Counted from the stretch's first letter, positions 5,221 to 29,123 are shown. The stretch: DNA of 64,000 bases from Camelus ferus (GCF_009834535.1 NC_045696.1:14138001-14202000); one strand, 5' to 3'. Program-made: numbers and translations. The notes: a model not told the origin generated them from the sequence alone.

Positions 5221-6544
5221 TAAAAAAAGTTTCCTCTTTTATTGTGGTAATTCAGGAGGTATTCTGTGTATATTGTTGGACAGAGTAAATACAGTGATGT
5301 CGAGGTAGAGGTTTTGCATAAAAGGGAGACACAAATAAGGAATAAAGTGTAAAAGAGACCTGTGTATTTCAGTTTTAACTGGAGATATTAATAATTTGAA
5401 GACCATAAAGAAGTTTGGACAAACCCATGTGAATACAAATGGTTGTTTATTTGAGGATGATAATGGTGGCATTTAACATCAAATTCAATATGATAGAGCT
5501 GCTAAGAATATTAACCAGTTTTAGGTGATATTAAGATATGTGTTGGGGGCAGATTTGGGAAATCGTGATCAACAGTCTTGGCTTATGCCTCTATACCTAA
5601 GGTACTGCTGGGGTCCAGCAATCATGGCTTACTAAGCAAGCCAAAATAGCTGTAAAATACACTATTCCTTGACATGTGAAAGCATAAATCATCTAATTTC
5701 TACCTAATATTAGACAAACATTTTAAACTTCAAGAATAAATGTATAGGAAAGACAAGTCATCATACAGGCACACTTTTAGAAAAAAAAAATGTTCTCTTT
5801 GGAGATTTGATCCTTCTAGGGATCTTAACTCCTTCTTGTGAGGTAAGTAATTTCAAGCTGTGAACCTGTCAACATGAATGGGGGCATATCCATTACGTTA
5901 AACTAAATACAGCACTTAAGCTCACTCATGTCCAAGATCTGGAAATCTTCTTTCAAGAAAAGATAATTGACAGGTTACCAACATGTAAGTAACAAAAAAA
6001 ATATGGAAAGGTGAATAATTGTAGCTGAAACTGTGAAACCACACAAATAACAGGAAAGAATTAACTCAGGACAAACATGAATATAGAATGCTATGAAACA
6101 GCTCTAACCATAAACATGTAATGAGTTTCAAAAATAATGTCACCTTTAAAAAACAAAATTTTAAAACATAGCAAGGCATATTAAGGTTAGGAGGGGACCG
6201 GCCAGGGTAGATTTGACATTCTCAACTTCTTGAGCTGGACGAGCATGAGAAACATTTCTTGCTTAGGTATGCCAAACCCAAAAATTAGAAGCAGGAATTA
6301 TGCTTCAATACTCAAACCTTTTAAAAAATGCAGATTGTAAAACAGACATCTATAAAGATTGTTGCTATCTTAATGTCAGAACTCAGGATTTGACAGAGCA
6401 ACTGAAATAGAAAAATAAAAAGAAGATATCCCATAGATAAGACAATTGCTTCCTTGAATTAAAAACAGGAAAAAAAAGAAACCAAAAATATAAATACTGC
6501 ACATTAAATGAAAAAAATAGGCTTATTCTTCCAAATTGAAAAGG

Positions 6545-6550
6545 TTTATT
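6545..6550 (-). promoter_or_regulatory. Poly(A) signal of KRTAP6 copy A (a second AATAAA lies at 6747-6752)
   Basis: tttatt (AATAAA on minus) ~265 nt past the stop, similar to the spacing in the paralogs. Confidence 0.7.
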
Positions 6551-6813
6551 GAGAAGATAGAGAAATGAGTCGTGCATGAAAATCTAAAGGCAGAATCTGT
6601 GACAGTATTGTTTTAATAAGAGATCATGTGGGAGTTCTCATGAAAATTTCAATTCTCCCATGTTTTAGGAGTTAAATACAGAAAAGAAAGAGTTGGTGTA
6701 TCAGATGCAGAGGACATCAGAAGGCAAGTCCTCAAAAGGCTCCGAATTTATTGGTTCAGAACTGGGGAATACTGAGGTCCAGGTGTAGAGGATGAGAGTC
6801 TTCCTTGGCGTCC

Positions 6814-7017
6814 TCAATAGTAGTAGCCAAAGCCAGAGCCATAGGCAGAGCCACACCCATAGCCACAGCCACAGAGAGAGTGGGAGCCAAAGCCATAGCC
6901 ACAGCCCAGTCTGCGGAAGCCACAGCCATAGCAGGACCCATAGCCGCAGCCCAGGCCTCTGTAGCCACAGCAGCCATAGCCACGGCCCCCATAGTAGTTT
7001 CCGTAGTAGCCACACAT
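6814..7017 (-). CDS. KRTAP6: Keratin-associated protein 6 family, copy A, 67 aa (KRTAP6-2-like by position)
   Basis: [50 protein letters not shown]...GFGYYY. Kozak-like ACACCATG, TATA box upstream, AATAAA downstream, single exon. Confidence 0.95.
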
Positions 7018-7106
7018 GGTGTTGGTGTTGGGTTGAGGTTGTCCTTGGGTAGAGAAGGAGAGTAGAAGTGTCACTTCAGGGTGGACATGTCTCCCTGCAG
7101 AGGGCC

Positions 7107-7113
7107 TTTTATA
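7107..7113 (-). promoter_or_regulatory. TATA box, KRTAP6 copy A
   Basis: TATAAAA on minus, ~90 nt upstream of the ATG. Confidence 0.85.
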
Positions 7114-8799
7114 TGTCCTCAGTGTGGGTGTGACCCACCACACCTTCATGACGTTGCCAAACTTTATGACTAATCTAATTAGTTTGTTGTTCCTAAACCA
7201 TAAGATAAAGCTTCAGAGAAATTCAGGGAGCTTGCTGTCTTGGTTTCTCAGTTTGGTCTCCTCTTATGCCACTGAGGTTTGAATAAAGGAGCTACCCACT
7301 CACATCTATGCATTCAGGCCCAAAATTACACGTTCATTTTAACTTCCTGGAACCATTCTTTATATCACAGAGATGACATTTTTTAACCATACTCTTATTT
7401 GCTCTTGGCCCAAGTTTCATTAAATTTTTCTTCATCAGACTAATAGTCCTTCTGAGTTGTGGAATTTTCTTTTTGATCCAAACTGAGTACCTCCTTCAAG
7501 GATTCAATTACGTTTTGATATTGACACCATAGTGTATGTCTCATCATCATGATGTTGATAATAATCCAACTAATTAAAATTTCCCCCAAAAAACCAGTGT
7601 GAGCAAGATGTATTGTACTTTTTTACTTATGCTGATGAGTCCAAACACTTATTGTTCAATTTCTGCTGGTGGACGGCAAAACAGAAGTGAGTCTTTGAAA
7701 TCCAGTTTCTCCACTTTCCACTTGTTTTTCTAAATTGAGTATACCTTCATGCAAATTAGTTAGTTTTCACATTAATATTAGAACTATATTCTAAATGGCC
7801 AATAGGGTAACATCACATATCTACATTTATCAACGTACTAAACAGAGGTCTGTGTTTTAATCAGTATGTTCAGTCATGACTCACATTGTACCAGTCACAC
7901 TGAGTGCTGTTCCATAGTCCTACAGTGAGTTCTCTTGCATAGTCCTAGCATTATTCCTGTCTTTTTTCAAATTTGTGTTATAACCCCTCCCATTGTGAGG
8001 CACTAGAAAAGTGAGACTAGTTCATATTAGTTAAAATGTACTTTGTGTCTTTAAGAGAATGCATGTGGTGAGGTGGCATTATCCACAAATACATGTGTAA
8101 TCTATCAGTAGGTTTCTGTTATACTATTGATATTTCTGAGTCAAAATGTTATCTTTACATCTTCTCGTAACCTTAGAAAGGGACAGAGAATAGCAGATGT
8201 AGGACACCCCCTATATTTTAGCCAATTCTCCTCTGGAGATCAAAAGAATGAAGCTACAAGACTTTTAAAATTTTCCAGTTCATCTCTCCTGAGAAGTATA
8301 TCTAATAACTCAAAACATCCTTCTTAGTAAAGCAGAATGTTTTCATACTGAGGATCTGACCAAACACATTCATCTGTTCATTCAGTATGTGTTTTTGAAT
8401 GCTTTTTCCATGTGTATATTCAGTAGGGGTTTTTTTGTTTGTTTGTTTGTACAATAGATACAGTCTTGTGACTTTTATTCACCATTTGCTGAATTCAAAT
8501 ATTAGAATTACAAAAAACCTTTAAATCATTTTCATTAAAATTTCATTATTAGAACTACAAATCATCACTCTATCATTTTCAAATTTCCCATACAGAAAAT
8601 AAAGGTAGCCTCAACTATCACAAAATCAAGTCAATCAAGTGATAACTTAGAATAAGTTTCCAGTAAAAAAAGAAAAATCACTCAATAACATGATGATCCA
8701 GCTTCCTCAAGATTATTTAAGTTCTTAAAATATCACCTGAAATTGGTGTGACTAATTTGCCTCACTCAGTATATAAAAGACTATAACTGACGGGTTTCT

Positions 8800-9740
8800 T
8801 TTCAGGGGTTAGTATTTGATTCAAGTAGCCATAAAACATTATTTTGTGCAAAACAAAGTCTGATATTTACCCAAATGATCTGCTGATGTCTTCTTAGATT
8901 GTTAGTTTTCATCAAAAATTTTACAAACTGAAACTGAGTTCGTGACTCTTCACATCCCCAAACATTTCCCCCATCTTTTTTCCTACATCGTAAAGCATGC
9001 AAGATATAAATCAGAGATGGACCCTCCTAGTGATTGTCCGTTACTTTCCACATTAAGGGTCCTAGACTACACAAGACACCAGTTAAATTTCAATTTCAAA
9101 ACTCTGAAACTCAGAATATCCAATTTTCCAAACATTTCATAGGCTACACCTGTACAAAAAATGTTTCTCTGAAAATCAAGTGTATCTGAGTGTTCAGTAT
9201 TTGTATTCGCTGTGTCTGGCAACGCACACCATAGGAAGCACAGCCTTTATGGTTTACCCCGTTATAGCCTTGATCACCTCTATGAGTACGTCTTGTAACA
9301 CTATTCGTCTCCTTATGGTACACAAAAGTCAATGGCCTCTCTGCTCTTCAGATGTGCCAAGTTTGTTTCCAACTTAAAGCTGCTACATTTGAGTTACTGA
9401 CCCTTGCAAGTAACAGCACAACGGCTAGAATTCTCTGTTTCCTTGGATCTCTCAGAGAATTTCCCTGACCATCCCTTCTGAAGTAAACTCTCACCAATAC
9501 TTCTTAAAATTGCCTTATTTTGCCTTAATTTAACATTTAAATAGACTCAACTCTATCAGAAATTAATTATATCATTCACTTTGAGAATTTGCTTTCAGAT
9601 CTTTGCCTGCATTTTCTGCACTTGCACATTTCAGATGATAAGCTTCATGACAATAGAAACCTTTTCTGTCCTGTTCACGGCTCCATCCTCCATGCAGATA
9701 ACATTGCCGAACATACAATTGATTCTGAAAGTTTGATGTA
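8800..9740 (+). mobile_element. Degraded L2-like fragment (paralog at ~18330-19630)
   Basis: L2 3'-end-like motifs ttccctgacc ... tgttcacggct ... gtttgatgtatgaa. Confidence 0.45.
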
Positions 9741-10388
9741 TGAAAGAATTTAATAACTGACCAAATAAATGCAATCAAGGATTATATAAAAATAATTCTA
9801 ACTTTCTTATTCTGAAGTGATGTTAGAATTGTCAAAAGTTCCAAGAATATATAGCATATACTCTTATACCATTTAATCAATTATTTCTATGTTAGCATCT
9901 TCCAAGACCAAGAATAAATTAAGAAATTAGCCTGGTACAATATTCTTAAGTAATCTATACACATTATTTGAATTCCGTATTTTTCCACGAATTTCCGTTT
10001 TTCTATTCCAGTGTCCAATGCAAGATCCCACATGGCTTTTGGTTGTCATACCTTTAGCCTCCATCAATTAGTGACAGTTTGTCAGTCTTTAACTTTTATG
10101 GCATTAACAATTTCAAAGAGTTGAAAGTTTTGTAGTATGTTCCTCTATTTTGTCATGTCTGTTTTCTCATAACAATGTTGAGGTTATGCATTTTGTGCAA
10201 AGTGCCAAAAGAGACGTATCTATTTACAGTGTTGTAACAGTGGGTAGACAATGTCAGTAAATCTTTGACAGTCTCTGAAATAGATTAAGTTCAACTTACT
10301 AATAGGATAAATCCTTCTACTTCTGTTATAATCATAGTTCATGGATTTAAACTACAGGGACTGTATCATGGTTTTTGTTCATTTACAA

Positions 10389-10392
<4 letters not shown>

Positions 10393-10451
<59 letters not shown>

Positions 10452-10464
10452 TATATATATACAC
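10393..10464. repeat. (TA)n/(CA)n microsatellite
   Basis: Seen directly. Absent from the paralogous position near 20290. Confidence 0.95.
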
Positions 10465-11042
10465 AGTATAAATGGAAGTGAATAATACTGCTCTACAAAA
10501 TTAATAAAATAAACTAATCACTCAAGTATTTACAACTGAACCCTGCCATGTCATCTCTGTCTTCCACATATCTTCTACCATGTCTTCTCCATAAATTTCC
10601 ACTGTCCTTTTCTACTTTGAAGCCACACTTTTATTCCCAAGGCTGCATATATGCAGATAGAAGGAGGAGATTATTGAATGAAACTAAGATTTTCAACAAG
10701 AAAACTCTACATGAGTTATATGGTCACATGGCAGCTAGAATATAGTTTAAATTTGGAATCTAGAATAAACAAGCCACCAAATTAGGAGAAGACTCTCTCA
10801 TTAAAGGCACATGATCTCATGATAGGCATCGTGACACACAACAGAGTTGTCTTGGCTTGGATATATTGGTTTTGAAGAATTCCTGAGATGGTCTTCATGC
10901 TAATGAGTTTAAAATATGAGTCCAACAGTAATTTAGGTTTGCCCCACATAACACTCTGTTGGTATATAGGGCCCTGTGCAGATTATAAATTTAAGACTCT
11001 AGAAACTGACTCTGCCCTTTGACTGAGACTTCTTCTCACATC

Positions 11043-11231
11043 ATGAGCTTCTACAACAACTACTGTGGTGGCCTGGGCTATGGCTATGGTGGCCTGGGAT
11101 GTGGCTATGGATGTGGCTACGGTGGCTATGGCTATGCCTGCTACCTACCGCCCATGCTGCTATGGAAGATACTGGTCTTCTGGCTTCTACTGAGAAATTC
11201 TAGATGCTTATCTGTTCAGGATGTTCTCTGA
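11043..11231 (+). pseudogene. KRTAP22-1: KRTAP22-1-like copy 1, frameshifted (62 aa aberrant ORF; ancestral stop at 11191-11193)
   Basis: [34 protein letters not shown], then a CTAC duplication (11141-11148) shifts the frame relative to the intact copy at 20863. Confidence 0.85.
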
Positions 11232-12429
11232 TGAGGCACCATGTGTACCTCGTTCACTAATTGTAATAAGGATGTCCTTGTCTGTTCAGTAATGACTACT
11301 GAAGCTTAGAGTACCATGCAACAGCAGACCTTTTTTGACAGAATTGCCTGAGTGTCCAACCACTTAGAAAAATATTCATTAGATCTATGTTACTAATTGA
11401 ATACAATCTTAACCATTTCCATTTGGGAAACTGTCTAAATTGATTTTTCACTAAAGATACTTCATTTTTCACATCTATAATATTTTCATGAATATTTATT
11501 TATGTAGATTTCTTGTGATTGTATGAGTGTGTGTGAGTTGTGTGTGAGATGGCTGGTCTTTCACTCTCTAAGCTGACAATTTATATGTGTGGATGAAAGG
11601 TTATATTCAACAGGTGATTTTCTGTTTGTGTTTTCTGTGAGGATATACAAGGTCTACTATTGTCTGCCTCAATCTCAAGAAGGCTTATCTTTGAAACCTC
11701 CAAACTTTGATTAAGGACATCAGCAAGATGTCACCTTTCTTCTCACCATGTAATGCTATTTTTTATTATCTCATCCTTTCCTGTTACTTGATATTTGAAT
11801 ATGCCTCTGGGAGGATATAATTTTTCCTTCTCAATTTTATATTACTGCCTGTTCCCTTCCTCACTGACAATATGCACTTGAATCCATCTCATGCATTGTA
11901 GCTGCACAGGGGGCTTTTTGTCATTCTCACATTGTCACAGGAAGCTACAGAATCAAGGCCATTTTCAATGAAATTTTCAAGGGTCAGTCTCTGCTTGTCT
12001 TTTGGAAAGAGATCTGTTATGCTTCATAACAAGGCAGTGGCTCTGGTAGACTAAAATCATGCAAACATAAATCTGACGTAGAATATAGGCTGCAAATTGT
12101 ATCTCTGATTCTGGTAGTCTGAGTAATGTTCAAAAAGCTGTTCATAGTAACTTTACTTATTTCACTCTATTTATTATCATTAAGTATTAGTAATAATCTC
12201 AACGATGATAAAATAGAAATCAATAGTATCTGTGAATTTTTAGTAATTAATGTTAGAATTTAGAGTACCTAAGACTGAAAGTAAGTCCATACACAATTAC
12301 TTTCTGAACAGGGGTCAGATTATGAGACAGGCCAAAATGCATGTTTTCTGGAAGGATCTATGGGGGATAATTATGTAGATGTCTTCCCTCATCAGTTGAA
12401 GACAGACTATACATGGGACTATGTATGAT

Positions 12430-15345
12430 TTCAGTTTTTTAAAATTAATTCATTATTTCTGACCTAACGTATGGTCTATCTTGGAGAACATTCTACACGT
12501 GTACTTGAGAGAAATTTGTGTTCTCTTGTTGCTGGCTATACACTAGACTGTGCTAGGCCTAGGTGGTTTATAGAGTTCTTCAACTATTTATATTACAATT
12601 TTCTGTATAGTTGTTCTATTCATTATTCAAAGTGGAATATTGAAACCTACAACTTTTATTATTGCAATCTTTCCCTTTTCATTCTGTCAATTTTTTGATT
12701 TGTGTATAGTGGAGCTCTGTTGTTAAGTACATTTGAATTTAAAATTATTGTTTCTTCCTGATAGATTGCCACATTTATCATTACAATATATTCTTCTTTC
12801 TTTATTAAATTTTTTTGTATTACAATGTCTATTTAATCTGGTATTCTTATATCCACTCTAGCTTTCTAATGGTTACTGTTTGCAAATAAATAAATTTTTT
12901 CAAGCGAATTAGATTATTGAAATATTTTTCTGATGGCTACTCTAAAATCTGTGTCAATAATTTGAATATTCGATAAACTTTGTGTTAATTGCAGTTGATT
13001 ATATTTCTCATTGGGTTTTAATTTTCTTATTTCTTGGCATGATAGTATAAGAGAAATGTTGTGTATTAAAGGCATCTTGGTTCTACTTAAATCTTTTTTT
13101 ATTTTTAAAGCAGGAAGTCACCATGTTTAGATTTAACACATGGTTCTTGTGAGCTATGATTCATAATTTTCAGAGTTGTTGCAGTGTTCTTTTGGTCTGT
13201 TTGGTTTATCCTGACCACTGGTTGTCCCACTGGTCCCTGCCATTGCTGCCTGAAAGAACAGAAAGAATTTCACCAGCCCATGTCCTCTATGTCTTTTGAT
13301 GGAGTAGTGGGACAGTAAGATTTCCCACCTGTCTCTCTCACTGCCAAGATGGCTCTTGGATGGGATAGGAGAGTCTTACTTACATAAGGCAGAGACTTCC
13401 TGAATTTGGACATAACTGCCTCTAAATAACATATGAAGTAAAGAAGAAATCACATGAGGCATTGAAAAATATTTTAGTAACTACTAAAGAAATGCAATTT
13501 AACAAATGTCGACTTATCAATAAAGAATTAGACGTAAATTTATACCTTTAGTTATGTTAGGAGAAAAAGGACATTTTAAAAATCAGTGCTCTAAGCTTTG
13601 TTAAAAATCTATAAAGGAAAAGAAATTTAAATATAAAATAAAAAGAATGAAGGAAAAATAAAGACATGAGTGGAATCAATTCAATAGAAAAAGAATAAAC
13701 TATAGGAATATCAATAATACTCAAAGAAGGCTCTTTGAACAGATCAAACTGATAAAATCTAGAAAAATGGATAAAGAATTTTGAAGAGACAATACAAATT
13801 ATCAATCTGAGAAATAAAAGAAGCAGCATCTTTTAGATCCTATTGGCTCCAAAAATTAGTGGATATTATGAAGAATATTTTGCCTATAAATTCCACAACA
13901 TAAATTAAATGGAAATTTTCTTTTAAATACACAAATTACCAACACTGAATCAAATAAATCAGAATAGCACTGTAACTGATAAAGAAAATGAATTTATAAT
14001 TAAAATTACAAATGCAAAAGGAACAATATGGACTAAGAGGTCTTCAGTTGTAAATTCTATTAAATTTTCATAAACCATACTTATGCGTAATGGAAGGAAA
14101 TGGCAGTAGGCTAGGAATTTAACACCAATATTTTTCTCCAAAGCCATACTGACAATAGATATATTACACTTCTGCATATTTTATTAATGTACTAAAAACT
14201 GAAACTAATCTTATGAAGAATGCATATATATATATCAAGTAAACATAGAAACACACTAGTAATAATGTACAATTTTAATATTCACTCTCATAAAAAACAA
14301 ATCAAAAAGAAAAAAATAAGTAAAAAGAGAGAAAATTTAAAAATTTAATTAATTAGTTTAATTAGTTTTCAAGGATGTATACTCACCTCTATAGAATTAG
14401 TAGAGAACAACCCTTCTTCTCAAGCTTTCATAGATAGTACACAAAACTTTATCATATATTAGGTCAGAAAAATTATTGGGAGTTTTTAAATTGGTAGTGT
14501 TTAAATACTGCTGAACACATTTTCTGTTATGCTTTAAAACTAGAAATTGCTAACAAAATCAAAAGACAGAGAATCCTGTTCACCTGGAGAGTAAATCTTT
14601 GATTAAACAATTCTCAGCTGAAAGAGAAAATACAAGATGAGATTGTAGAATTTCAGATAAATAATGGTAATGATAATAGTACTTAGAATCTGCAAGAAAA
14701 CTTCAAGCAGTAATTAGAGAAAAATGCATAGCACTGAACACTTCTGTCAGTGAAAATGAAAGAAATAACACAAATAAGTTAGTACCCCAGGTTAAAAAAA
14801 AATTCATAAACAACAGTGAAGTGCAAACCAAAGAAACGGCAAGGAAGGAAGTAATAAATAGACATAAGCATAAATTAATAAAGTAGAAGCTACTAAAAGT
14901 TAGACTTTTAAAATGATTCAAAATGCTACTATTTCCAAAGTTTGACATTTATAAATCACTTGCTAATTAATTTAATCAATTTGACCATAATCAAAGAAAA
15001 AGAAGCATAAACTAAGTAAGAAATAATAAAAGGAAAATAAATATGGAAACAAGATGTTTTAAAATTCATATGAATCAAATTTGCAGATCTTTAAGGTAAT
15101 ACATTTGGAAACCTAGATGAAGAGGATAATTTCATAAAGGAATACAGATTACCAAACTTGACACCGTTACATTTAGAAAATATAAACAGACCGATTTCCT
15201 TACAACAAGCAACAGCAACAAAAAACCTTAGAAATACAACACAAAATATTCCAGGTCCAGATAATTTTTCAGGGAAGTTCTACCAAATCTTCAGATGTAG
15301 AATAATTTGATGTTCTATAGATGGTTCCCTAGCACTGCAAATGAG
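12430..15345. mobile_element. Old L1 (L1M-type) fragments, minus then plus orientation (paralog ~22170-26250)
   Basis: A-rich ORF2-like remnants such as tttggaaacctagatgaagaggataatttc and ccaggtccagataatttttcagggaagttctacca. Confidence 0.7.
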
Positions 15346-15370
15346 GGAAACTTGTATTGCTATCAATGCA

Positions 15371-15780
15371 TGTGTCGGGCAGATTATTAAAGTGTCTTCA
15401 TGATTTCTGCCTCTTGATATCAACACCCTAGTGATGCCCTCATCTTGAGTGTGGACAAGATTTGTTATTTACTTCTAACAACAAAATATGACAAAAGTAA
15501 TAAAATATATGTGATTGTATGTATGTGATTCTGTTACATAAAATTGCATGGGATTGTAGCTCCCATCTTGCTGGAGTAGCTTCCTCTCCCTTCCTGGCTT
15601 AGAGAAAGCAAACAACTGTATCTGAGAACCAACATGGTAAGGAACTACAGGCAGCCTCCTGGAGCTGAAGGTGGCCTACAGCAGACAGCCTGCAGAGGCA
15701 TCCCACCAACAGTCAACACTGAGGCCCTCAGTTATACAACCACAAGGAACGAAATTCTGCCAAAACACTGTTTGTAAGTG
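15371..15780 (+). mobile_element. MLT1-type MaLR LTR (paralog 26270-26710)
   Basis: ttacttctaacaacaaaatatg ... ggtaaggaactacaggcagcctc ... acaaccacaaggaacgaaattctgccaa. Confidence 0.75.
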
Positions 15781-15836
15781 ATGTTGGACATCAAATAACT
15801 GACGTAAAACCAGGGTTTCTGTTTAGATTGAACAAG

Positions 15837-15842
15837 TTTATT
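15837..15842 (-). promoter_or_regulatory. Poly(A) signal, KRTAP6 copy B
   Basis: AATAAA on minus ~285 nt past the stop, with T/GT-rich sequence downstream on that strand. Confidence 0.75.
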
Positions 15843-16127
15843 AGGTCAACAGAGAAACAAGCTCCAACATGAAAGTCAAGGCAGTTGCTTGACACCATCA
15901 TCCTGACAAAAGCAGAACTCTGAGGTCACAGGTGAATTTCACCATCTCATACTTCTTGAGGTAAATTCAGGGAATTTGTAGGTTGAACGGTAGGTCAACA
16001 ACAGACCATATTAGACTTCCATGATGCAGGGTAATCATCACCCAAGGGAGAGGCACAGAACATGAGAGGTTCAGAATGGGGAATCCTGAGGTCCAGGTGT
16101 AGAGGATGAGAGTCTTCCATGGCGTCC

Positions 16128-16307
16128 TCAATAGTAGTAACCAAAGCCAGAGCCGTAGCCAGAGCCACACCCATAGCCACAGTCATAACCACAGCCCAGT
16201 CTGCGGAAGCCACAGCCATAGCAGGACCCATAGCCGCAGCCCAGGCCTCTGTAGCCACAGCAGCCATAGCCACGGCCCCCATAGTAGTTTCCGTAGTAGC
16301 CGCACAT
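16128..16307 (-). CDS. KRTAP6: Keratin-associated protein 6 family, copy B, 59 aa (chimeric flanks)
   Basis: [66 protein letters not shown] at 16397-16403, AATAAA at 15837-15842. Confidence 0.95.
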
Positions 16308-16396
16308 GGTGTTGGTGTTGGGTTGAGGTTGTCCTTGGGTAGAGATGGAGAGTAGAAGTGTCACTTCAGGGTGGACATGTCTCCCTGCAGAGGGCC

Positions 16397-16403
16397 TTTT
16401 ATA
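16397..16403 (-). promoter_or_regulatory. TATA box, KRTAP6 copy B
   Basis: TATAAAA on minus, same context as copy A. Confidence 0.85.
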
Positions 16404-19400
16404 TGTCCTCAGTGTGGGTATGACCCACCACACCTTCATGACGTTGCCAAACTTTATGACTAATCTAATTAGTTTGTTGTTCCTCAGCCATAAGATAAAG
16501 CTTGAGAGAAATTCAGGGAGCTTGCTGTCTTGGTTTCTCAGTTTGGACTCCTCTTATACAATTGAGGTTTTGAATGAAGGAGGCATCCACTCACAGCTAC
16601 GCAGACATGTCCAAAATTACACGTTCATTTTAACCTCCTGGTACCATCTTTTATATCAAGAAAGGTGGTATTTTTTAGACTTTTGTCCCTCAAGAATGTT
16701 ACTATTTTATAACATTTAAAAAAATTCCTTTTGAATGATAAATTTTTCTTCTCTCTTGATCTAAATTATTGCTTTCTCCAGGGATTTAGTGTCTTTTCTA
16801 TGTATCTTTCATGCCCATAGTCTTGATAATATTTTTACTCATTAAAATTTCAAGAGAATCAGTTCTGAACAAAATGCCTTCTACTTTCCTACTTTCACCA
16901 ATGTGTGGAATTTTCATTTATGTTCAGCTTCTACTAAAGGACATGAAAATAGAATTCATTCTTTGGAATCCAATTTCCGTATTTCTTTTTTCCCTAATTG
17001 TATATATAATTATTAGTTAATATTCTAGGTAACTATTCAACTGCATTAACATTATGTACTTGTGTTAACAATGAATTAGACAGAGAACTATTCCTTTCTC
17101 AGTATATCCAGTCAGTACACTCTATAACCTGGCATGCTGAACTTTCTTGCATAACCCTTGAATTACAACTACCTTCCTTGAAATCAATGTGATAACTCAT
17201 CATTTTGGGCAGCCAAAGAAAAATGTTGGTAGTGTTATAATCAGGAAGAATATTTCTCTATCTTTAAGAAAATGAATGTGGAAAGCAGCATTATTCAAAT
17301 AGAACAAGGATTTCTGATATACAATGATAGTTCTTAGTCAAAATATTATTTTTATATGTCTCTCAGGGTAACCTTAGGCTGGATTTAGAGAGTGGAATTT
17401 GGGGCTGGTTTACATTGCAGTGAAGATGGTTTAAGAAATTAGACATCCTCTGCATTTTAACCAACTGTCTCTGTAGATCATCAAAACATGGACATTGATA
17501 TTTTCAATTACTAATTCATCTAATATGGTAACCATTTCAAATGAATCAAGAGGAAATAACATCTTAATGATACATAAAAATGTCTTCATGCTAAAGATCA
17601 GATCAACACACTCATCTGTTCAACGACATGTGTTTTTGAATATATTTCCATGTGTTCTTGGTTGGTGCATTTTTTTAAAGTAAATATCTTATTGTAACAT
17701 TTAATTCATTACTGAATTGAGATGCGATAAGCAGAGGACATCTTCAAATTTCTCATATAGAAATTAGCAGTAGCTTCATCTCCCACAGTGCCAAGTCAAT
17801 CAATCACAAGTTTTTAGTAAAAACTAGTTGATATAATAATTCTTCTCCTTCAAGGATATGTAAGTTGTTATAACATGGCTAAATTTGGTAAGCCATAACT
17901 CTATCAGTTTTTTTAATACTATTACTAACCTAGGCTTTTTATGTATTTGATTAAAAAATAGAATACATTGTTTCTATGCAGCTCAATTTTCCTAATTTCA
18001 ACATTCATTATACTTTTTCTCCTTAAGGTTACATCCAGGAATTAATTTGGTTCTTTTGAAAACTGAGTTACCCTCTCTGATCATAGCAGTGAGAGCTTTG
18101 CACTGCATCATTTTTCCCCCTATTCTATCTGGTGTGTTATTCTGAATATACTTGATTCTCAAGTATATTCCAAAATCAAGGGTAAAACAAGCCTAATTTC
18201 ACTCTTCATGACCTTCAAAGTAATCCCCATTGTCATATTCTACTTCATAGCAAAACATCACAAGTGTATTTATACCCATGGAGGCATTTTGATATTCCTT
18301 TACCTCTCTGTTCTTATTTTTTGTTCTCTGGCCTCCACTGCTCTAACTGAGATGCCCTTGCAGAGATCAAGACTTCAGTCTTGCCCTATCTAAGAAGTCA
18401 AATGTTCAATTTACTCAGCCTCTGAGTACTTTTAGATCCACCAAACTCTTTTCATTCCTAAAAGACTCCAATCTTTAGCATCACCTTACAAACACAGCTT
18501 TGGTTCAGTTCCAACCTCAGCAGCTGCTTCTTTTGAGTATCTTCTCTTTTCTCTTCTCAGATTTTTCCCTCAACTGATAGAGTGCCCAGCTATGTGTTTG
18601 CTACACATATAGTCTCTAGCTAAACCTGTAGATGGATCGCACTTGGATACATTCTTTTTCTCAATCAGTGTTAATTTCAATCTTATTTTTTCCACATATA
18701 TTTAATATATATTATATATCTCATTTTCATATATTTTTCATGTATATTACATATTTTCATATATTATATTTTTCATATATATTATATATTACATATATGT
18801 GTGTGTGTGTGTGTCTTCAAATTAACCCTTATCTCCATGGATTAATAGTCATTAGAAATTTAACAAGACAAATTGCATTCAAGGCTCTCTATACTACTCA
18901 GCCTGCTTCATTATTTTTTCTACATCTCAAAGCATGCTTGGCATAAATCAGGTTGTGACCTTCCTTTTGAAAATCCTTCAAAGTCTTCCCACATTAGAAT
19001 GGCTAGAGTAGACACCAAGCATGCCATTAAACTTCAATTTCAGAATGTTGAATTTCAAAATTCAGAATATTGAATTTCCAAAAGCTTGCAAGGGGAATAT
19101 TTAAGCTAAAATAGTTTGTTTATCGACCATTTAGATTTAACTAGATGTCTTGCATTTTCATTTGTTACATCTGTCAACCCAAGGTTTAGAAAACATAGCC
19201 ACATGGCCCAGCCCTTCCTCTCCATTATGATTCACAGAACTTAGTCGCATTTCAGCGCCTCAAAATGACCTTGTTGTTTCCGCCATAAACTCTCCGCCCT
19301 TGAGCTCTTGAAGTAATAACAAAAATATCTCACCTTCTCTCTTAGTTCTCTCAGACAGCCTTTTCTTGACCACACAGTGTTATGTAATCCCTCATCAATA

Positions 19401-20785
19401 ACTCTTTTAATTTCCCCTAATTCACCTTCATTAAATATTTATATACCCACATCAGTATCAGAAAATATTCATTTTTAAATCTTTGTCTGTCTTGAATTGC
19501 CTGACCCAGCGTGATCCAGAATATATGCTCCATAAAAATAGTGACTTCATCTGTCATATTCACTGCTCCATTCCCAGTGCTTATAATAGTGCCCAGTGTA
19601 CAGTTGGTTCTTTAAAAAGTTTGATGTATGAAAGACATCATAGATATTCAGCTCAATAAATGGAAGAGTAGTTATGTTTTCCTTTTGAATCTCATATTTT
19701 AAAATGATTTTAGATTTGCATAAAGTTATGAAAATATTAAAAAAAACTCTCATAAACTCATTACTCAATATCCCCAACCTTAACATCTTTCATAGTACTT
19801 TTATCAAACCAATAAAGTCAACCTTGTACCACACTCTTAACTATGAATTCTTATTTTATTTTTTTTCCTTTTTATCTTTTTGTTGTTGTTGTTTCAGGAT
19901 CCAATCACATTGCCTTTGGTTGCGTATTATTTTTTCTCTTCCAATTAGTGCCAGTTTCTCTTTTACACTTCTTTCCTTGAGTGTCATGGCCTTGACAATT
20001 TTAAAGATATTGATCAGATATTTAGCAGAATATTCTCAATTTGGGTTTGTTTGAAGTTTTCTCATATGCATGCTGAGGTTATACATTTCAGCAGAAAGCC
20101 AAAAGAGATGTGCCTTTTTGAGCATGACATATCAGAGGGTACATCACATCAATAAAACACTGAGAGTTTCTGGGATCATTTTTAAACTTAGATTTCTGAT
20201 AGAATGACTCCTTCCTTTCCTATACATCCAGGATTAACTAATGGGGTTAAACTTCAGGGTCTTTCCCTAGTTTTGTGTCATATGTAGAATTATAGATACA
20301 TGTTTATGTAAGGTCTAACCCAAAGGGAAGTAAATATATTACTCCTCAAAAAGTGATAAGACTGAATTATTCAATGTTTTACAAGTGAATCCTGCTGACC
20401 ATGTCTTCTGTCCCACAAAATTTCCATTCTTCTCTTTCCTGTTAAAGCAACCCTTTTATTCCTAAGGCTTCATATATACACATAGAAGGTAGATATTAAA
20501 TGAAAATAAGATTTTCAACAGGTAGAATCTGTATGGGTTATACAATCTCATGGTAGCTAGTAACACAGTTTAAATTTGGAATCTGGGATAAACAAGCCAC
20601 CAAATTAGGAAATGGATCTTTTATTAAAGGCATATGATTTCATGATAAGCATCATGACACAAAACAGAGTTGTTTTGGCTTGGATATACTGGTTAGGAGG
20701 AATACTTGAGATAATTTTAACAACAATTAGTTTGAAACATGAATACAAGAGAGCCTGTGGTTTGCCCCATATACTACTCCATAAG

Positions 20786-20792
20786 TATATAA
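20786..20792 (+). promoter_or_regulatory. TATA box, KRTAP22 copy 2
   Basis: TATATAA followed by GGCCC, 77 nt before the ATG. Confidence 0.8.
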
Positions 20793-20862
20793 GGCCCTGG
20801 GCAGATTATAAACATAAAACCCTAGAAACTGACTCTGCCCTTCGACTGAGCCTTCTCACATC

Positions 20863-21024
20863 ATGAGCTTCTACAACAACTACTGTGGTGGCCTGGGCTA
20901 TGGCTATGGTGGCCTGGGATGTGGCTATGGATGTGGCTACGGTGGCTGTGGCTACAGTGGCTATGACTATGCCTGCTACCGCCCATGCTGCTATGGAAGA
21001 TACTGGTCTTCTGGCTTCTACTGA
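20863..21024 (+). CDS. KRTAP22-1: KRTAP22-1-like copy 2, intact, 53 aa (not in the ORF track)
   Basis: Hand translation: [53 protein letters not shown]. The MSFxNNY start and the position between KRTAP6 genes fit KRTAP22-1. ATTAAA at 21282-21287. Confidence 0.9.
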
Positions 21025-22606
21025 GAAGTTCTAGATGCTCATCTGTTCAGGATATTCTCTGATGAGGCACCACATGTACCTCCTGCATTAATCCATAATA
21101 AGAATGTCCTTGTCTGTTCAGTAATGGCTACTGAATCTTAGACTACCATGCATCAGCAGACCTTTTTTAATGGAATTGCCTGAGTGTCCAACCATTTAGA
21201 AAAATATTCATTTGATCTATGTTACTGTTATAATTGAATACAATCTTAACCATTTCCATTTGGGAAAATGTCTAAATTTTCATTAAAGGTACTCTGTTTT
21301 TCACACATACAATGTTTTCATGTATATCATTTATGTAGATTTATTCCGACTGTGTGTGTGTTTGTTTAGAAGTTGTTGGCCTCTATATACACTCTCTTTA
21401 TTGACAATTTATTTGTGTGGTTGAAAAGTCATATTCAACCACTGCTTTTCTACTATGTGTTTTTTGTAAGTATATCCAGAGGCTACTATTATCTGCCTTG
21501 ATCTCATCAAAGCCTTATCTTTGGAACATTCAAACTTTGATATTGGCAAAGTGGTACCTCCCTGCTCACTACTTCATGCTGTCTCTTTAGCATCTCATTC
21601 TTTCTCTATACTTGGTATTTGAATATGCCTTTGGGAAGATGTAACTTTTTTCTTCTAAATTTTATATTACTGCTGATTCCTTTCCTACTGACAGTATGTA
21701 CTTGAACTCATCTGGTGCATTGTAGCTGCACAGGGGGCTTTCTGTCAGGAAGACAGAATTTGAGGTGTTTTTCAGTGAAATTTTCAATGGGTCAATCTGC
21801 TTTCTTTTTGGAAAGCTATCTGTTATGTCTCATAACAAGGCAGTGGCTTGGGTAGACTGAAATAATGCAAACGCAAGTCTGATCCAGAAGAGAGTCTGTA
21901 AAGTGCATCCCCAATCCTAGTAGTCTGGGTAATGTTCAGTAAAGTTGTTTACAGTAACTTTACCTAATTCACTCAATTTATTATTATTAAGCATTAGTAA
22001 TAATTTGAACAATGATGAGATATAAATCAACAATATCTATTAATTTTTTAGTAACTAATGCTAGAGTTTGTGGATGCCAAGACTGAAACTGAGTTCATAC
22101 ACAATGACTTTCTGAATACAGATCAAATTGTGAGATTGACCAAGATCTCAACTTGCCCCAAATGTGTTAATTAATTCATTCTTTTTGACCTAGCATATGG
22201 TCTATCTCGGAGAACATTCCACATGTGTACTTGAGAGAAATTTGTGGTCTCTTGTAATTGGGTATTTACTAGACGTCTGTTAGGTCTAGTTGGTTTATAG
22301 TGTTCTTCAACTATTTATATTATAATCATCTGCATAGTTGTTCTATCCATTATTCTAGTGGGATATTGAAATCTTCAACTATTATTGTTGCAGTTTTTGT
22401 CCCTTTCCATTCTGTCAATTTTTGATTTTTGGATTTTGAAGCTCTGTTGTTTTAATATATTTGAATTTAAAATTTGTTATCTTCTTGATAAATTGGCACA
22501 TTTATTATTGCAAAATGTCTCTCTCTTACTGTTTTAAAATTCCTTATTTCAAAATCCATTTAGTTGGTATTGTTAAACCCACTCAAGCTTTTTAATGTTT
22601 CTGTTA

Positions 22607-22607
<1 letters not shown>

Positions 22608-22653
<46 letters not shown>
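22608..22653. repeat. (CA)n microsatellite
   Basis: Seen directly. Confidence 0.95.
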
Positions 22654-22655
<2 letters not shown>

Positions 22656-23698
22656 ATCCTTTTGCTTTCAACCTATTTTTTTTCTAGAGATTCTGATTCC
22701 TAAAACATTTTATGATAGCTACTTTAAAATCTGTATCAGATAATTTGAACATTTGGTTAACTTATTGTTAAGGTCAAATGATTATTTTCTCTCATTCAAT
22801 TTGTAATTTTTATGTTTCTTGCTATAATAATGTGGAGAAATTATGTGTATCAAAAGCTTCTTGGTTCTATTTAAAGCTCTTTTAAAAGCAAGAAGTCACC
22901 CTGTTTAGGTTGAGGTATGTTGTGGGCTGTGATTCATAATTTTTAGAGTTGTTGCAGTAGTCTTTTGGTCTGTTTGGTTTATCTTGCACCACTGGCTGTC
23001 CCACTGGTCCATTGCTGCCTGAAAGTGCAGAAATAATTTCACCAGCCCACCTGCTGTGTGTCTTTTGGTGGAATGATGTTACAGTAAGATTCCCCACCTT
23101 TGCTCCTCAGTGCCAAGATGTGTTTGAAGAGAACAGAAGAGTGTAAAGTACATGAGAACAGTATTCCTTGATTTGGAAATAATTCCCTTTAAATAACCAA
23201 ATATATGGCTTACCACCAAAGAATTGATTAAACTGAGATTTACAGCTTTAAATATTTGTTAGGAAAGAAGGACATTTTAAAAATCAATTCTCTAAGCTTC
23301 TTTCAAAAGCAAAATAGGAAGAGAAAGTTAAATATAAAGTAAGAAGAATGAAGGAAAAATGGAGATATGAATGCAATTAATTCAATAGAAAATGGACAAG
23401 CTATAAAGAAAATCGATAATTACCTAAATTGGTAATTTGGACAGATCAATCAAATCGACAAGTTCTAGATATAAATCAAAAATACAGGAGAAAGAATATA
23501 AATTACTAGTGTGAAGAATGAAAGGATCAACATCTTTTAAAATCCCACAGGCTCAAAACATAAGTGGATAATATGAAGGATGTTAGCCAATAATTTCCAG
23601 AACGTGGATGAAATGAAAATTTTCCTTTAAATACACCAATTGCCAAAACTGACTCCAGTAAATTTGAATAACACTGTATCTAATAAAAAAATAAATTC

Positions 23699-24844
23699 TT
23701 ACAGTTTTGTAATCCCATCTATCCCTTCCCACCCTCTGCCCCCTTGGCAACCACAAGTTTGTATTCTATGTCTATAAGTCTATTTCTGTTTTGTATTTAT
23801 GCTTTTTTTTTGGTTTTTTTGGTTTTTTAGATTCCACATATAAGCGACCTCATATGGTATTTTTCTTTCTCTTTCTGGCTTACTTCACTTAGAATGATAT
23901 TCTCCAGGAGCATCCATGTTGCTGCAAATGGCATTATGTTGTCGGTTTTTATGGCTGAGTAGTATTCCATTGTATAAATACACTACTTCTTCTTTATCCA
24001 GTCATCAGTTGATGGACATCTAGGCTGTCTCCATGTCTTGGCTACTGTAAATAGTGCTGCTATGAACATTGGGGTGCAAGTGCCATCCTGGAGTAGTGTT
24101 CCTTCTGGGTATATGTCCAGGAGCAGGATTCCTGGGTCATACGGTAAGTCCATTTCTAGTCTTTTGAGGAATCTCCACACTGTTTTCCACAGTGGCTGCA
24201 TCAAACTGCATTCCCACCAGCAGTGTAGGAGGGTTCTCCTTTCTCCACAGCCTCTCCAGCATTTGTCTTTTGTGGATTTTTGAATGATGGCCATTCTGGC
24301 TGGTGTGAGGTGATACCTCATTGTAGTTTTGATTTGCATTTCTCTGATAATTAGTGATAATGAGCATTTTTTCATGTGCTTATTGATCATTTGTATGTCT
24401 TCCTTGGAGAATTGCTTGTTTAGGTCTTTTGCCCATTTTTGGATTGGATTGTTTGGTGTTTCTTATTAAGTTGCATGAGCTGCTTATATATTCTAGAGAT
24501 CAAGCCTTTGTTGGTTTCATTTGCAAAAATTTTCTCCCATTCCGTAGGTTGTCTTTTTGTTTAACTTATGGTTTCCTTTGCTGTGCAGAAGCTTGTAAGT
24601 ATCATTAGGTCCCATTTGTTTATTCTTGCTTTTATTTCTATTGCTTGAGTAGACTGTTCTTGAATAGATAAACAAGATTACACTGTATAGCACAGGGAAA
24701 TATACACAAGATCTTATGGGAGCTCACAGAGAAAAAATGTGACAATGAATAATTATATGTTCATGTATAACTGAAAAATTGTGCTCTACACTGGAATTTG
24801 ACACAACATTGTAAAATGATTATAAATCAATAAAAAAGTTTAAA
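23699..24844. mobile_element. Young L1 3' fragment with 5' inversion (minus 23699-24660, plus 24661-24844)
   Basis: Minus ORF 23983..24390 is the L1 ORF2 C-terminus ([16 protein letters not shown]...[11 protein letters not shown]). The plus part is the extreme 3' UTR with an A tail. AAATTC flanks both ends. Confidence 0.92.
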
Positions 24845-26269
24845 AAATTCATAATTAAACACAACTTTCCACAAAATAAACTTTAGGCTCCATTGTCTTC
24901 AGTGGTAAATTTTATTAAATATTTATACAGCATGCTTATAGGTACCTTAAGAAAATTGTAGAGCCTAGGAACTTGACTCCCAATATTTTTGTCCAAAAGC
25001 TCTAGTAAACAAGAGATACATTGAAGTTCTAGGTATTTTATTTACATGAAAAACACAGAAACTGTCTTCATGAAGAATCATTATCTCTCTATCTATCTAT
25101 CATCTACGTCAAGGAGAAGTAGATAGGAATACACTAATAATGGAAGACTTTAATGTACTGATCTCAGAATAAGACAGGTCAAGTAGAAAAAATAGGTAAT
25201 CAGAGAGAAGACCTAAACAATATAATCAATAAGATAGCTTTTATGGTTATATATTGACTTTTATATTCCAATAATAAAAAATAAAACTTCTTTTCAAGCA
25301 CCCACAGAACATCCACTATAATTTATTATATATTATGTCATACAGAAAATATTACTATGTTTTGTAAAGTAAAAATACTGAAAACAAATACTCGCTATTG
25401 TCATGCAACAAAACTGATAATTACTAGGAAAAAAAAGAATAGAAAATTTATTTAAAAATAAAATCAAGTGGTGGAAAAAAAACACACCTTTATCCTAGAA
25501 AGTAAAAAGTCTTTTATTAAAGAAATTGTTGGGATAAAAGAGGACATAAAAATAAAATTATAAATTTTTAAGTAATTAGTGGTAATGAAAATAGTCTATA
25601 ACAAAGTCTTTGAGAAAAATTTAAATTATTTAGAGAAAATTCATAGTGCTGAAAACATTTATAAGTAAAAATAAAAGTAAATTAATATTTCAGCTCAAAA
25701 CAATTCATAAAGGAAAACTAAGAAAACCAAAGAAAGCACAAAGACAGAAATACATCAAAAAGCAAAAATTAATGAGAATATGAAAAAGTGACTTAAATAA
25801 TGAGCCAAAATGCCATTATTTGAAATAATTAACAAAATTATTAAATTATAAACTACTTGCTAACTTGATGAAGACAAAAATAAATAAAGAAGCCATATGC
25901 AAAATATATAACGAGAAAAATGGACATTGAAATAGAAGAAATTTGAATCATCATATGAGACTACTTTTCAGAGCTCTGTGTATATAAATTTGAAAATCTA
26001 GATGAAATGGGTAATTTCCTAAAGAAATACAGATTACCAAGATGGACACTATTAGTCTTAGAGATCAGAAACAGACCAATTTCCTTGAAAGTAATAGAGA
26101 AAATTATTAACAAAATACCTCACATAAAAGCCCAGTCCCAGATGATTTCTCAGAATTCTATCAAATCTTCAAGGACAAGATAATCCTAATATTGTAAAAA
26201 TTGTTAAAGAGCACTGAAAATGGTGAACAACTTCCTAATTCCTATTAAAAAAGTACAGCATTGAGTCTG

Positions 26270-26710
26270 AGGTATGTAGACGTTAAACATGCCCCCCTGA
26301 TTCCTGCCCTTTGATGCAAATGCCCTTATGTGATCTCCTCCTGGTATGAGAGCTGTGATTTGCTTTGTAACCAATAAAATAGGGCAGTGTATGTGATTAT
26401 ATGTGCTTATGTGATTATTTTACACAAGATTGTTGCACTCATCTTGCCAGAGTCTGTCTCCCTCCTTGATTTGAGTAAACAAATATCCATGTTTGGGAAT
26501 TTACTTGGCAAGGAATTGTGGGCAGCCTTTGGCATCTGACAATGGTTTCTAGTCTGCAAGGGCCTCTGGCTAATAGTCAGCAAGAAAAAAATCCTTTTAT
26601 TCCTACAGCTAAAATGAACTGGGATGTGCCAACAATAGCATGTGCTTGGAAGTGGATCCTTCCCCAATTAAACCTCAGATGTGACCACAGCCCCATACAA
26701 CATCTTGAAC
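26270..26710 (+). mobile_element. MLT1-type MaLR LTR
   Basis: ggcaaggaattgtgggcagcct ... gcttggaagtggatccttcccca ... cctcagatgtgaccacagcccc. Confidence 0.75.
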
Positions 26711-27175
26711 TGAAAACTTGTGGGATGCTGAAGCTTCTCAGCCTGTATATGAAATAGTGTTTTTATCTGAATATTATGGCCCACTATGCATGCCAAATGA
26801 TTGTATAGTCTATTACTAGCTTGAGATCTAATACATTGTTAAACTATTCTTTAGGTTATATCTCTCATATCTTTAAAATGGATATAAGAAATACTTGGGT
26901 TAGTGTTAAGAGTTATCCAGCATAACATATCTTATTACCTGAGTAGCAGAAGAGCAAACTGAAGTCTACATAAAAAAAAAAAGATACTTTCCTAAGACAA
27001 TTGATATTTGAATTGGTAAAGAAACCAGCCTAAAAATCGTAAGAGAGAATATCTCACAAAGAACATAATTGTTAGCTTTCTTGAAAACTGAAACAAACAG
27101 ACAAAAAAACTGTAGGTAACACTGAACATCAAATAACTGACATAAAAACCAGGGTTTCTGTTTAGATTGAATAAG

Positions 27176-27181
27176 TTTATT
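27176..27181 (-). promoter_or_regulatory. Poly(A) signal, KRTAP6 copy C
   Basis: AATAAA on minus, same context as 15837. Confidence 0.75.
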
Positions 27182-27463
27182 AGGTCAACAGAGAAACAAG
27201 CTCCAGCATGAAAGTCAAGGCAGTTACTTGACACCATCACCCTGATGAAAGCAGAACTCTGAGGTCACAGGTGAATTTCACCATTTCGCACTTCTTGAGG
27301 TAAATTCAGGAAATTTGTAGGTTAGATGATAAATCAACAACAGGCCACACTAGACCTCCATGATGCAGGATAACTACTACCGAGGAAAAGGCACAAAAGA
27401 TAACTACTACCTTGGAGAATCCTGAGGTCCAGGTGCAGAGGATGAGAGTCTTCCATGACATCC

Positions 27464-27685
27464 TCAGTAGTAGTAGCCAAAGCCAGAGCCGTAGCCAAAG
27501 CCAGATCCACAGCCATAGCCACAGCCACACAGAGAGCGGGAGCCAAAGCCATAGCCACAGCCATAGCCACAGCCCAGTCTGCGGAAGCCACAGCCATAGC
27601 AGGACCCATAGCCGCAGCCCAGGCCTCCGTAGCCACAGCAGCTACAGCCACGGCCCCCATAGTAGTTTCCATAGTAGCCGCACAT
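27464..27685 (-). CDS. KRTAP6-1: Keratin-associated protein 6-1-like, copy C, 73 aa
   Basis: [40 protein letters not shown]...GSRSLCG...GYYY. Head-to-head with a KRTAP20-1-like gene, as I recall for the human cluster. TATAAAA at 27771-27777. Family certain, ortholog number inferred. Confidence 0.93.
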
Positions 27686-27770
27686 GGTGTTGGTGTTGGT
27701 TTTGGGATTGTCTCTGGGTAAAGAAGGAGGATAGGCAACTTCAGTCTGGACAATTTCCCTACAGAGAGCC

Positions 27771-27777
27771 TTTTATA
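27771..27777 (-). promoter_or_regulatory. TATA box, KRTAP6 copy C
   Basis: TATAAAA on minus, 86 nt upstream of the ATG. Confidence 0.85.
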
Positions 27778-28369
27778 TACCCTCAGTGTGAATGGGAACC
27801 ATCACAGAAGTCATACCATTGGCTAATTCGCAGGACCAATCTGAGTAAATTGTTGACTCCTGGTTTTAAATCATGGCCTCAGGGGTATTGAGGACAGTTG
27901 CTAATGTTGAGTCACATCTGAATCATTTTTGAGTCATTAGTAAGAATCAATTGTCTCATATTCAAAACTCTATTTATATAAGATCTTCAAATTATCCATT
28001 TCTAACCAACCATTATGGCAAGATAGCATTTTTAGTAGACATTCTAAACTACCCAAGACAACCAATGATAATATGTTATTTTGGCTGACATTCAGCAAAT
28101 TATGATAACCTACCTTTACCTTGAGCTTTTCTATCTCTTCTCTGCTGTTCCAAACCCATGTTTTGTTTTGTTTTGTTTTTTTTCCTTTAAGGATCCCCCT
28201 TATTTTCACAGGAGAGATGGTTTACTATGAAAAGCCAAAAAGTACCACTCAGCTTCATGAGATGATTGACAAAAACCCAATAACTTGAAATTCTGGAACA
28301 CCAGGCCTGAGAAAAATTGACTTCTATTTCTTACTTACATTAATACTTCCTTTTATGATTCTGTTTTTA

Positions 28370-29123
28370 AAACAAATGCTGGAGAGGCTGTGGAGAAAGT
28401 GGAACCCTCCTATACTGCTGGTGAGAATGCAGTTTGGTACAGCCACTGTGGAAAACAGTATGGAGATTCCTCAAAAGACTAGGAATAGATTTACCATATG
28501 ACCCAGGAATCCTGCTCCTGGGCATATATCCAGAAGGAACCCTACTTCAAAATGACACCTCTGCCCCAATGTTCATAGCAGCACTATTTACAATAGCCAA
28601 GACATGGAGACATCCTAAATGTCCATCAACGGATGACTAGATAAAGAAGAAGTGGTATAATTATACAATGGAATACTACTCAGCCATAAAAACTGAAAAC
28701 ATAACACCATTTGCAGCAACATGGATGCTCCTGGAGAATGTCATTCTAAGTGAAGTAAGTCAGAAAGAGAAAGAAAAATACCATATAAGATCGCTCATAT
28801 GTGGAATCTAAAAAAAAAAAAAAAAAAAAAAGTATAAATACAAAACAGAAATAGACTCATAGATATAGAATACAAACTTGTGGTTGCCAAGGGGGCAGAG
28901 GGTGGAAAGGGATAGACTGGGATTTCAAAATTGTGGAATAGATGAACAAGATTATACTGTATAGCACAAGGAAATATATACAAGATCTTATGGTAGCTCA
29001 CAGAGAAAAAAATGTGACAATGAATATATATATGTTCATGTATAACTGAAAAATTGTGCTCTACACTGGAATTTGACATAACATTGTAAAACGATTATAA
29101 ATCAGTCAAAAATGTTAAAAAAA
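28370..29123 (+). mobile_element. Young 5'-truncated L1, same family as 23699-24844
   Basis: ORF2 C-terminus ([14 protein letters not shown]...[14 protein letters not shown]) plus a 3' UTR nearly identical to the other copy. Confidence 0.92.

Follow-up and report, generated by a model that had tools for sequence, protein, structure and literature searches.

A mosaic KRTAP6 gene at the junction of an old tandem duplication in Camelus ferus

Results

Three KRTAP6 genes and their neighbours

The DNA analysed here is a stretch of 64,000 nucleotides from Camelus ferus (GCF_009834535.1 NC_045696.1:14138001-14202000), hereafter the window, and all positions are counted from its first letter. It contains three KRTAP6 genes in one orientation, which we call A, B and C, with B located between A and C (Table 1). 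All three open reading frames pass the cut-off of Pfam PF11759 (B with 26.9 bits against a cut-off of 21.1) and carry the MCGYY-type N-terminal start and the C-terminal GSGFGYYY that are the conserved hallmarks of KRTAP6 proteins (PMC4820716); seven of eight matches to their nearest named homologues are named KAP6-like. The repeat region of the B coding sequence (CDS) has an in-frame deletion relative to A and C. We considered but rejected the short B CDS as a camel-specific character, because the alpaca protein P0013 also has a CDS of 59 aa; the alpaca gene at the position of B is given as 216 nt in PMC4180150.

Table 1 Features of the KRTAP6 locus in the window
Feature	Position	Strand	Remarks
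Copy A, promoter, CDS and A-type 3' UTR	6500..7385	-	AATAAA at 6752 and 6550
Copy A CDS	7017-6814	-	intact ORF, 67 aa
Copy B CDS (KRTAP6)	16128..16307	-	intact ORF, 59 aa plus stop
Upstream promoter of B, A-type	16551..16677	-	not recently homogenised; 103/125 identical to 7261-7385
A-like block of B	16068..16550	-	best explained as a young homogenised tract; 459/473 identical to A 6763-7260
Switch interval in B, A-like to C-like	16035..16068	-	BLAST end and max-chi split
C-type distal 3' UTR of B	15788..16067	-	246/282 identical to C
Old repeat-derived flank downstream of B	14040..15668		matches C's flank 24895-26539; 64% over 1734 columns, E 2e-138
Copy C, distinct promoter, CDS and C-type 3' UTR	27123..28040	-	AATAAA at 27181
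Copy C CDS	27685-27464	-	intact ORF, 73 aa
Unit-1 head-to-head glycine-tyrosine hair gene	11044..11204	+	4-nt duplication shifts frame
Unit-2 partner gene	20863..21024	+	intact, 53 aa; PF11759 40.1 bits
Duplication unit 1: A's CDS and promoter, small hair gene, old repeats, B's 3' end	6786..16099		collinear with unit 2
Duplication unit 2: B's CDS and promoter, small hair gene, old repeats, C's 3' end	16100..27435		collinear with unit 1

The C-type tail of B has a single AATAAA, at 15842-15837 (−). The AATAAA of A at 6752-6747 (−) lies 62 nt past the stop, at the end of the block common to A and B, and could give A a much shorter 3' UTR than the one at 6550. About 460 nt present downstream of the poly(A) region of C are absent downstream of that of B (15669-15772 vs 26540-27110), and the cleavage context of B may be altered by this absence. 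The TATA box of B lies near 16403-16397 (−), inside the A-like block. Upstream of the TATA boxes of A and B, in-frame ATGs extend the frames through 7149-7018 and 16439-16308 (−) to ORFs of 103-111 aa. These span the TATA box and were rejected as genes and treated as chance open frames, their use being limited to promoter typing; an exact database look-up found neither of the two extended frames. The camelid proteins P0003 and P0011-P0013, which begin within these extended stretches, probably have mis-annotated starts.

Each of the two intervals between the KRTAP6 genes holds a small partner gene. The unit-1 partner, which we take by its position to be KRTAP22-like, is identical to the unit-2 copy at 155 of 157 sites, with flanks at 81-83%. 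The frameshift in 11044-11204 removes its normal C-terminus and reflects either recent pseudogenisation or a sequencing error. The window also contains an array of KRTAP20-like genes at 30986-62300 (+), with intact copies at 30986, 42701 and 49660 and copies broken by stops or frameshifts near 37500, 54960, 57880 and 62130. An exact look-up found one of six window proteins, that of the gene at 30986; a cluster mate is named KRTAP20-1-like from dromedary.

The middle gene is a mosaic

A preliminary description of this locus had noticed that B resembles A over its promoter and CDS to about 16068 and C, not A, from about 16060 down to 15788, and this was borne out by a three-way alignment. Between 16680 and 16068, B agrees with A at 128 of 144 informative sites and with C at 16, and between 16067 and 15788 it agrees with C at 82 of 95 and with A at 13. 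Nearest neighbours thus change along B, which is not equidistant from A and C, and the max-chi-square of 134 was reached by none of 1000 permutations. In a BLAST self-comparison, 6753-7385 pairs with 16068-16677 (90% with gaps) and 15785-16099 with 27123-27435 (85.8%), limits that agree closely with the positions in the preliminary description. The distal UTR of A is, as had been described, unlike the other two, its homology to B and C being distant (z 9.3 and 7.9, 0/200 shuffles each). At codon 20, also singled out before, A and B have AGA (Arg) where C has GGA (Gly). The mosaic nature of B is real.

The switch had been placed near 16060. It was found there as an interval, not as a point: the best max-chi split is at 16035, not 16068. 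Since A aligns poorly between these two positions and C carries a private 13-nt repeated word at 27411 and 27381, we give the switch as 16068-16035. The A-like block comprises ~245 nt upstream of the ATG, the CDS and 60 nt of the 3' UTR. Similarity is uneven on both sides of the switch; A and B share 459 of 473 sites over 16078-16550 and 103 of 125 just upstream, and the UTRs of B and C share 136 of 143 in the last part and 110 of 139 in the middle. In the shared core (16415-16068), 32 sites have B equal to A and 6 have B equal to C; with the core homogenised with A, the original crossover point would have been overwritten.

The junction of a tandem duplication falls within B

Unit 1 (~6786-16099) is collinear with unit 2 (~16100-27435) over its whole length, with offsets of 9.2 to 11.3 kb, so that the whole 9-11 kb between the KRTAP6 genes is duplicated, both unit ends fall inside KRTAP6 genes and B sits at the junction. 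In the self-comparison of the window, nothing on the downstream side of A matched the unit, and on the upstream side of C the only matches are a young repeat and the partner-gene promoter (66%). One unequal crossover is expected to leave a hybrid located between both of its parents and a spacer in two copies, and a single such event between an A-type and a C-type gene is the simplest history for B.

The flank at 14040..15668 presumably consists of L1-like and MLT1-like repeats. The young repeat (91-92% identity), at 23701-24847, was inserted in unit 2 only and has a copy upstream of C at 28369-29122; relative to that copy, 23701-24269 is in inverted and 24657-24847 in direct orientation, an arrangement that we take to resemble a 5'-inverted L1 insertion.

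The position of B also bears on whether the mosaic arose when the assembly wrongly joined near-identical coding sequences, a fault suspected in the sheep KRTAP6 region R3 (PMC4820716). Both flanks of B are unique and far from those of A and C, and its composition is what is expected of any internal copy of a tandem unit. Moreover, 16 of the 24 runs listed (two organism labels, four studies) hold 77-82% of the words sampled from 15500-17000, although word content indicates presence only and not linkage, and one run may be the assembly source. Together with the same combination of promoter and tail on single contigs of other mammals, these observations make a misjoin extremely improbable.

Blocks of different age within the locus

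To compare the parts of the locus, distances were expressed as score per base of a global alignment and calibrated by simulation; raw identity from the global aligner was discarded for this purpose, as it reaches 70% even on shuffled sequence. The distances d so obtained are biased upward by long indels. Six intergenic segments gave 0.37-0.57 score per base, which corresponds to d of ~0.4-0.5 in the simulation, and the flank at 14040..15668 gave ~0.4 against the flank of C. Much smaller values were obtained for the middle UTR of B and C (~0.2), their terminal 143 nt (~0.05) and the A/B block 16078-16550 (~0.03). In the comparison of A with C, the UTR scored 0.25 and the promoter 0.15 per base, and d was ~0.5-0.6 for the A UTR against B or C and for the A promoter against C. 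A and C are thus farther apart on both sides than B is from either donor, by a small margin when set against the 0.37-0.57 between units.

A 3.4-kb block around the partner genes (10577-13994 vs 20398-23697) has d of ~0.2-0.25 in five segments, about half that of the remaining unit, and is an older layer of conversion or exchange.

The spread of block ages means that a single event cannot account for all of them, and the diverged intergenic unit set against the similar blocks argues that the duplication is old and that the similar blocks were homogenised later. Mammalian sequences accumulate 2-3 x 10^-9 substitutions per site per year. At this rate d of 0.4 corresponds to roughly 65-100 million years, with the upward bias from indels applying here as well.

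Probable gene conversion and the age of Arg20

Homogenisation within lineages was also seen in a matrix of promoter peptides (16 sequences, 39 residues, peptide level only). Differences numbered 0-5 within camelids and 0-1 and 0-4 within two ruminant-like groups, but 6-14 between camelids and the ruminant-like groups irrespective of tail type, so that paralogues within a lineage are closer than their counterparts between lineages.

Arg20 is found in A and B of the window and in two Camelus database proteins, whereas an alpaca protein with the same promoter type has Gly; Arg20 recurs in one mole-rat and one dugong protein. Residue 20 could be scored in 17 of 36 proteins, with 11 Gly, 4 Arg and 2 Glu. 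As Arg20 arises by a CpG to CpA change and is either young or recurrent, it was rejected as a marker of the crossover, a role in which the preliminary description had cast it. The 97% identity of A and B and the shared Arg20 are best explained as young features that stem from later gene conversion. Among 56 codons compared, synonymous differences are 4 for A/B, 5 for A/C and 5 for B/C, and such low counts against flank distances of 0.4-0.6 suggest that the CDS of C was homogenised too. The terminal 143 nt of B and C were probably also converted, though purifying selection could give the same pattern.

Purifying selection acting since an old duplication might be thought to explain the high A/B and B/C identity as a whole in place of conversion, given that it is in the promoter, the CDS and the poly(A) region that the conserved blocks lie and that synonymous differences are similarly few in all three pairs. 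Selection alone, however, does not spread new variants between copies, and here lineage-specific changes are common to paralogues and the promoter peptides group by lineage rather than by tail type. We regard this explanation as very improbable and conversion as the better account.

KRTAP6 promoter and tail types in other mammals

Mis-framed database gene calls that read through the KRTAP6 promoter, CDS and UTR served as outgroup sequence. Among 62 proteins fetched, eight had tails long enough to type; six of these matched, five of them with a promoter part, and two were without a match to the A, B or C tail types. Another eight off-frame tails, of only 21 aa, proved untypable and do not enter the tail count. 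As the A/B promoter was part of the queries, the set of proteins found is biased. P0024 and P0037 combine a promoter peptide of A/B type (95-117 bits vs 24-42 for C) with a tail of B type, which scores 62-66 bits against B, 31-32 against C and 0 against A. An A/B-type promoter was also seen with a B-type tail in P0031 and P0038 and with an A-type tail in P0039, all with weak tail matches (19-20 bits). P0024, P0037, P0038 and P0039 can be read as frame-shifted forms of named Bos proteins over 36-56 residues (48-56 for P0024 and P0037), compared with at most 26 for the other proteins tried.

P0038 and P0039 diverge ~60 nt past the stop, which is expected if the boundary simply ends shared homology. 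The switch in B coincides with this end of the block common to all KRTAP6 copies and is not a point to which a crossover can be mapped.

Five published sheep primers were compared with the UTRs of A, B and C, with shuffles as a control. The KRTAP6-3 primer matches both B and C at 17/20 (0/300 shuffles), the KRTAP6-5 primer B at 15/21 (2/300), the KRTAP6-2 primer A at 16/20 (0/300) and the KRTAP6-1 primer, weakly, A at 14/20 (10/300); the KRTAP6-4 primer had no match in the A, B or C UTR. In translation, the 6-5 and 6-2 primers give words that occur in the P0037 and P0039 tails. The presence of B-type and A-type genes in ruminant-like sequences indicates that both types predate the split of camels and ruminants, unless the B type arose twice.

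In the alpaca table of PMC4180150, five consecutive spacings agree with the window within 3%, among them 5295 vs 5263, 4660 vs 4556 and 11083 vs 11378 nt for the partner genes of both units, B and C. A gene at the position of A is not listed there, and a further KRTAP6 unit is placed to the left of the region of the window. The unmatched 6-4 primer and this extra unit point to an array longer than A-B-C.

These comparisons leave little room for a recent unequal crossover in the camel lineage, dated by the 97% A/B identity and Arg20. The high identity of A and B (459/473) and of the terminal UTR of B and C (136/143) is what such an event would leave, but the duplicated DNA between the genes is ~0.4-0.5 diverged, alpaca genes lie at matching spacings (PMC4180150) and B-type genes occur in ruminants, as judged from tails and primer matches. 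A recent origin is hardly credible.

According to PMC4180150, horse and gibbon have two KRTAP6 genes in this orientation, and the mirrored arms of the artiodactyl locus place KRTAP6 genes on both strands. If the sheep order (PMC5295022) maps onto the strands of cow, the sheep trio 6-1/22-1/6-3 shows the opposite geometry of UTR types, a reading that depends on the weak 6-1 primer match and on assumed collinearity. This hints at a history of the ruminant locus more complex than one event.

Discussion

A proposed history of B

We consider it the most probable history, at roughly 70%, that B is an old hybrid of the anti-Lepore type formed at the junction of a tandem duplication and later reworked by gene conversion. 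First, a head-to-head pair consisting of a KRTAP6 gene on the minus strand and a small Gly/Tyr gene on the plus strand would have been duplicated early, giving A-type and C-type genes that differed in their promoters and distal 3' UTRs and had in common a core that starts with the TATA box and runs to ~60 nt after the stop. An unequal crossover within this core would then have duplicated 9-11 kb and created B, with the upstream side of A and the downstream side of C, before the split of camels and ruminants. Subsequently, short conversion tracts would have homogenised parts of the genes with a close partner, namely A with the promoter and CDS of B (~500 nt), the CDSs of the two small genes and, probably, the last 143 nt of the UTR between B and C. 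The distance of the A UTR from B and C (~0.5-0.55) is barely above that between units (0.4-0.5), so the order of the first two steps depends mainly on the missing homology in the flanks. An unequal crossover between A and C had been proposed from the start; the position of B at the duplication junction makes it probable, while the markers cited for it do not derive from that crossover.

The history could also run in the other direction. In this case B, with an A/B promoter and a C-type UTR, would be ancestral and A or C the true recombinant, or several events would be involved; the array would have grown by whole-unit duplications, with the tail of A or the promoter of C imported or diverged later. 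Three sequences alone cannot polarise the event, the UTR distance of A from B and C is close to the intergenic distance, primer matches assign B-type tails to two sheep genes (6-3 and 6-5), and the mirrored arms with artiodactyl KRTAP6 genes on both strands (PMC4180150) also favour this scenario. Two or more additional events would, however, be needed to erase the unit homology on the downstream side of A and on the upstream side of C, and promoters of C type are present in the other mammal sequences P0029, P0032 and P0046. P0058, which over 32 residues appears to be the same gene as P0029, has a tail of B/C type (23 bits, weak), and the two together make the C-type promoter with the C-type tail look like an old natural pairing. 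We therefore judge an ancestral B to be unlikely, though not negligibly so, and prefer B as the hybrid.

Possible function and use

As far as the sequence can tell, B most likely provides an extra dose of ordinary KAP6 hair-matrix protein. Judging by its anatomy, an A-like promoter would most likely drive its transcription, and its polyadenylation would use the C-type signal at 15842. No RNA data set is among the runs listed with words of the B region, which speaks neither for nor against expression. The five sheep KRTAP6 genes are similar in expression pattern (PMC10815594), which gives no sign of a special role for one KRTAP6 copy. A more specific proposal, which we find doubtful, is that the hybrid is artiodactyl-wide and has been kept for more than 60 million years as a mosaic with two partners, one neighbour continuing to convert its promoter and CDS and the other its poly(A) region. 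If this is true, selection would maintain a common promoter and interchangeable 3' UTRs that tune the level of KAP6 mRNA and so fibre diameter.

By tail and promoter type, KRTAP6 orthologues can be assigned between camelids and ruminants where the CDS is uninformative. KRTAP6 variation in sheep is linked to wool fibre diameter (PMC4820716 and PMC10815594), and knowing which copies have common promoters or tails should aid the design of markers and probes in alpaca and camel. In PMC4180150 and PMC2528016, a low conversion rate is reported for glycine-tyrosine KRTAPs; the A/B/C locus is a counter-example, in which the tract includes the promoter.

Comparison with known systems

The hybrid B is a known type of event in KRTAP clusters, for which unequal crossover and conversion are established, and it does not reveal a new mechanism; we found no description of a hybrid origin for KRTAP6 in literature that covered few subscription journals. 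Anti-Lepore hybrid globin genes are the duplication products of unequal crossover. Like them, B is a hybrid between two intact tandem parents: A, the downstream gene, provides its 5' side and C, the upstream gene, its 3' side, and the DNA between the genes is duplicated. Unlike them, B is fixed and very old, its crossover point has probably been overwritten and it differs from its parents mainly in non-coding parts.

The concerted evolution of KRTAP1, as described in bioRxiv 10.1101/282418, is similar in that the CDS is homogenised within species while the flanks diverge normally, with indels of repeat number in the CDS and short-tract gene conversion. The A/B tract differs from it by exceeding the CDS (16550-16068 against 16307-16128), reaching ~245 nt beyond the ATG on the upstream side and 60 nt beyond the stop on the other, and the KRTAP1 pattern is better matched by the partner-gene pair at 11044 and 20863. 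Comparable too are sheep KRTAP6-2 and KRTAP6-5, which have an identical CDS and different 3' flanks (PMC4820716), the primer matches giving 6-2 an A-type and 6-5 a B-type tail. A hybrid origin is not described for this pair in PMC4820716, and as the pair may lie in the mirrored arm, the comparison with camel A and B applies to type.
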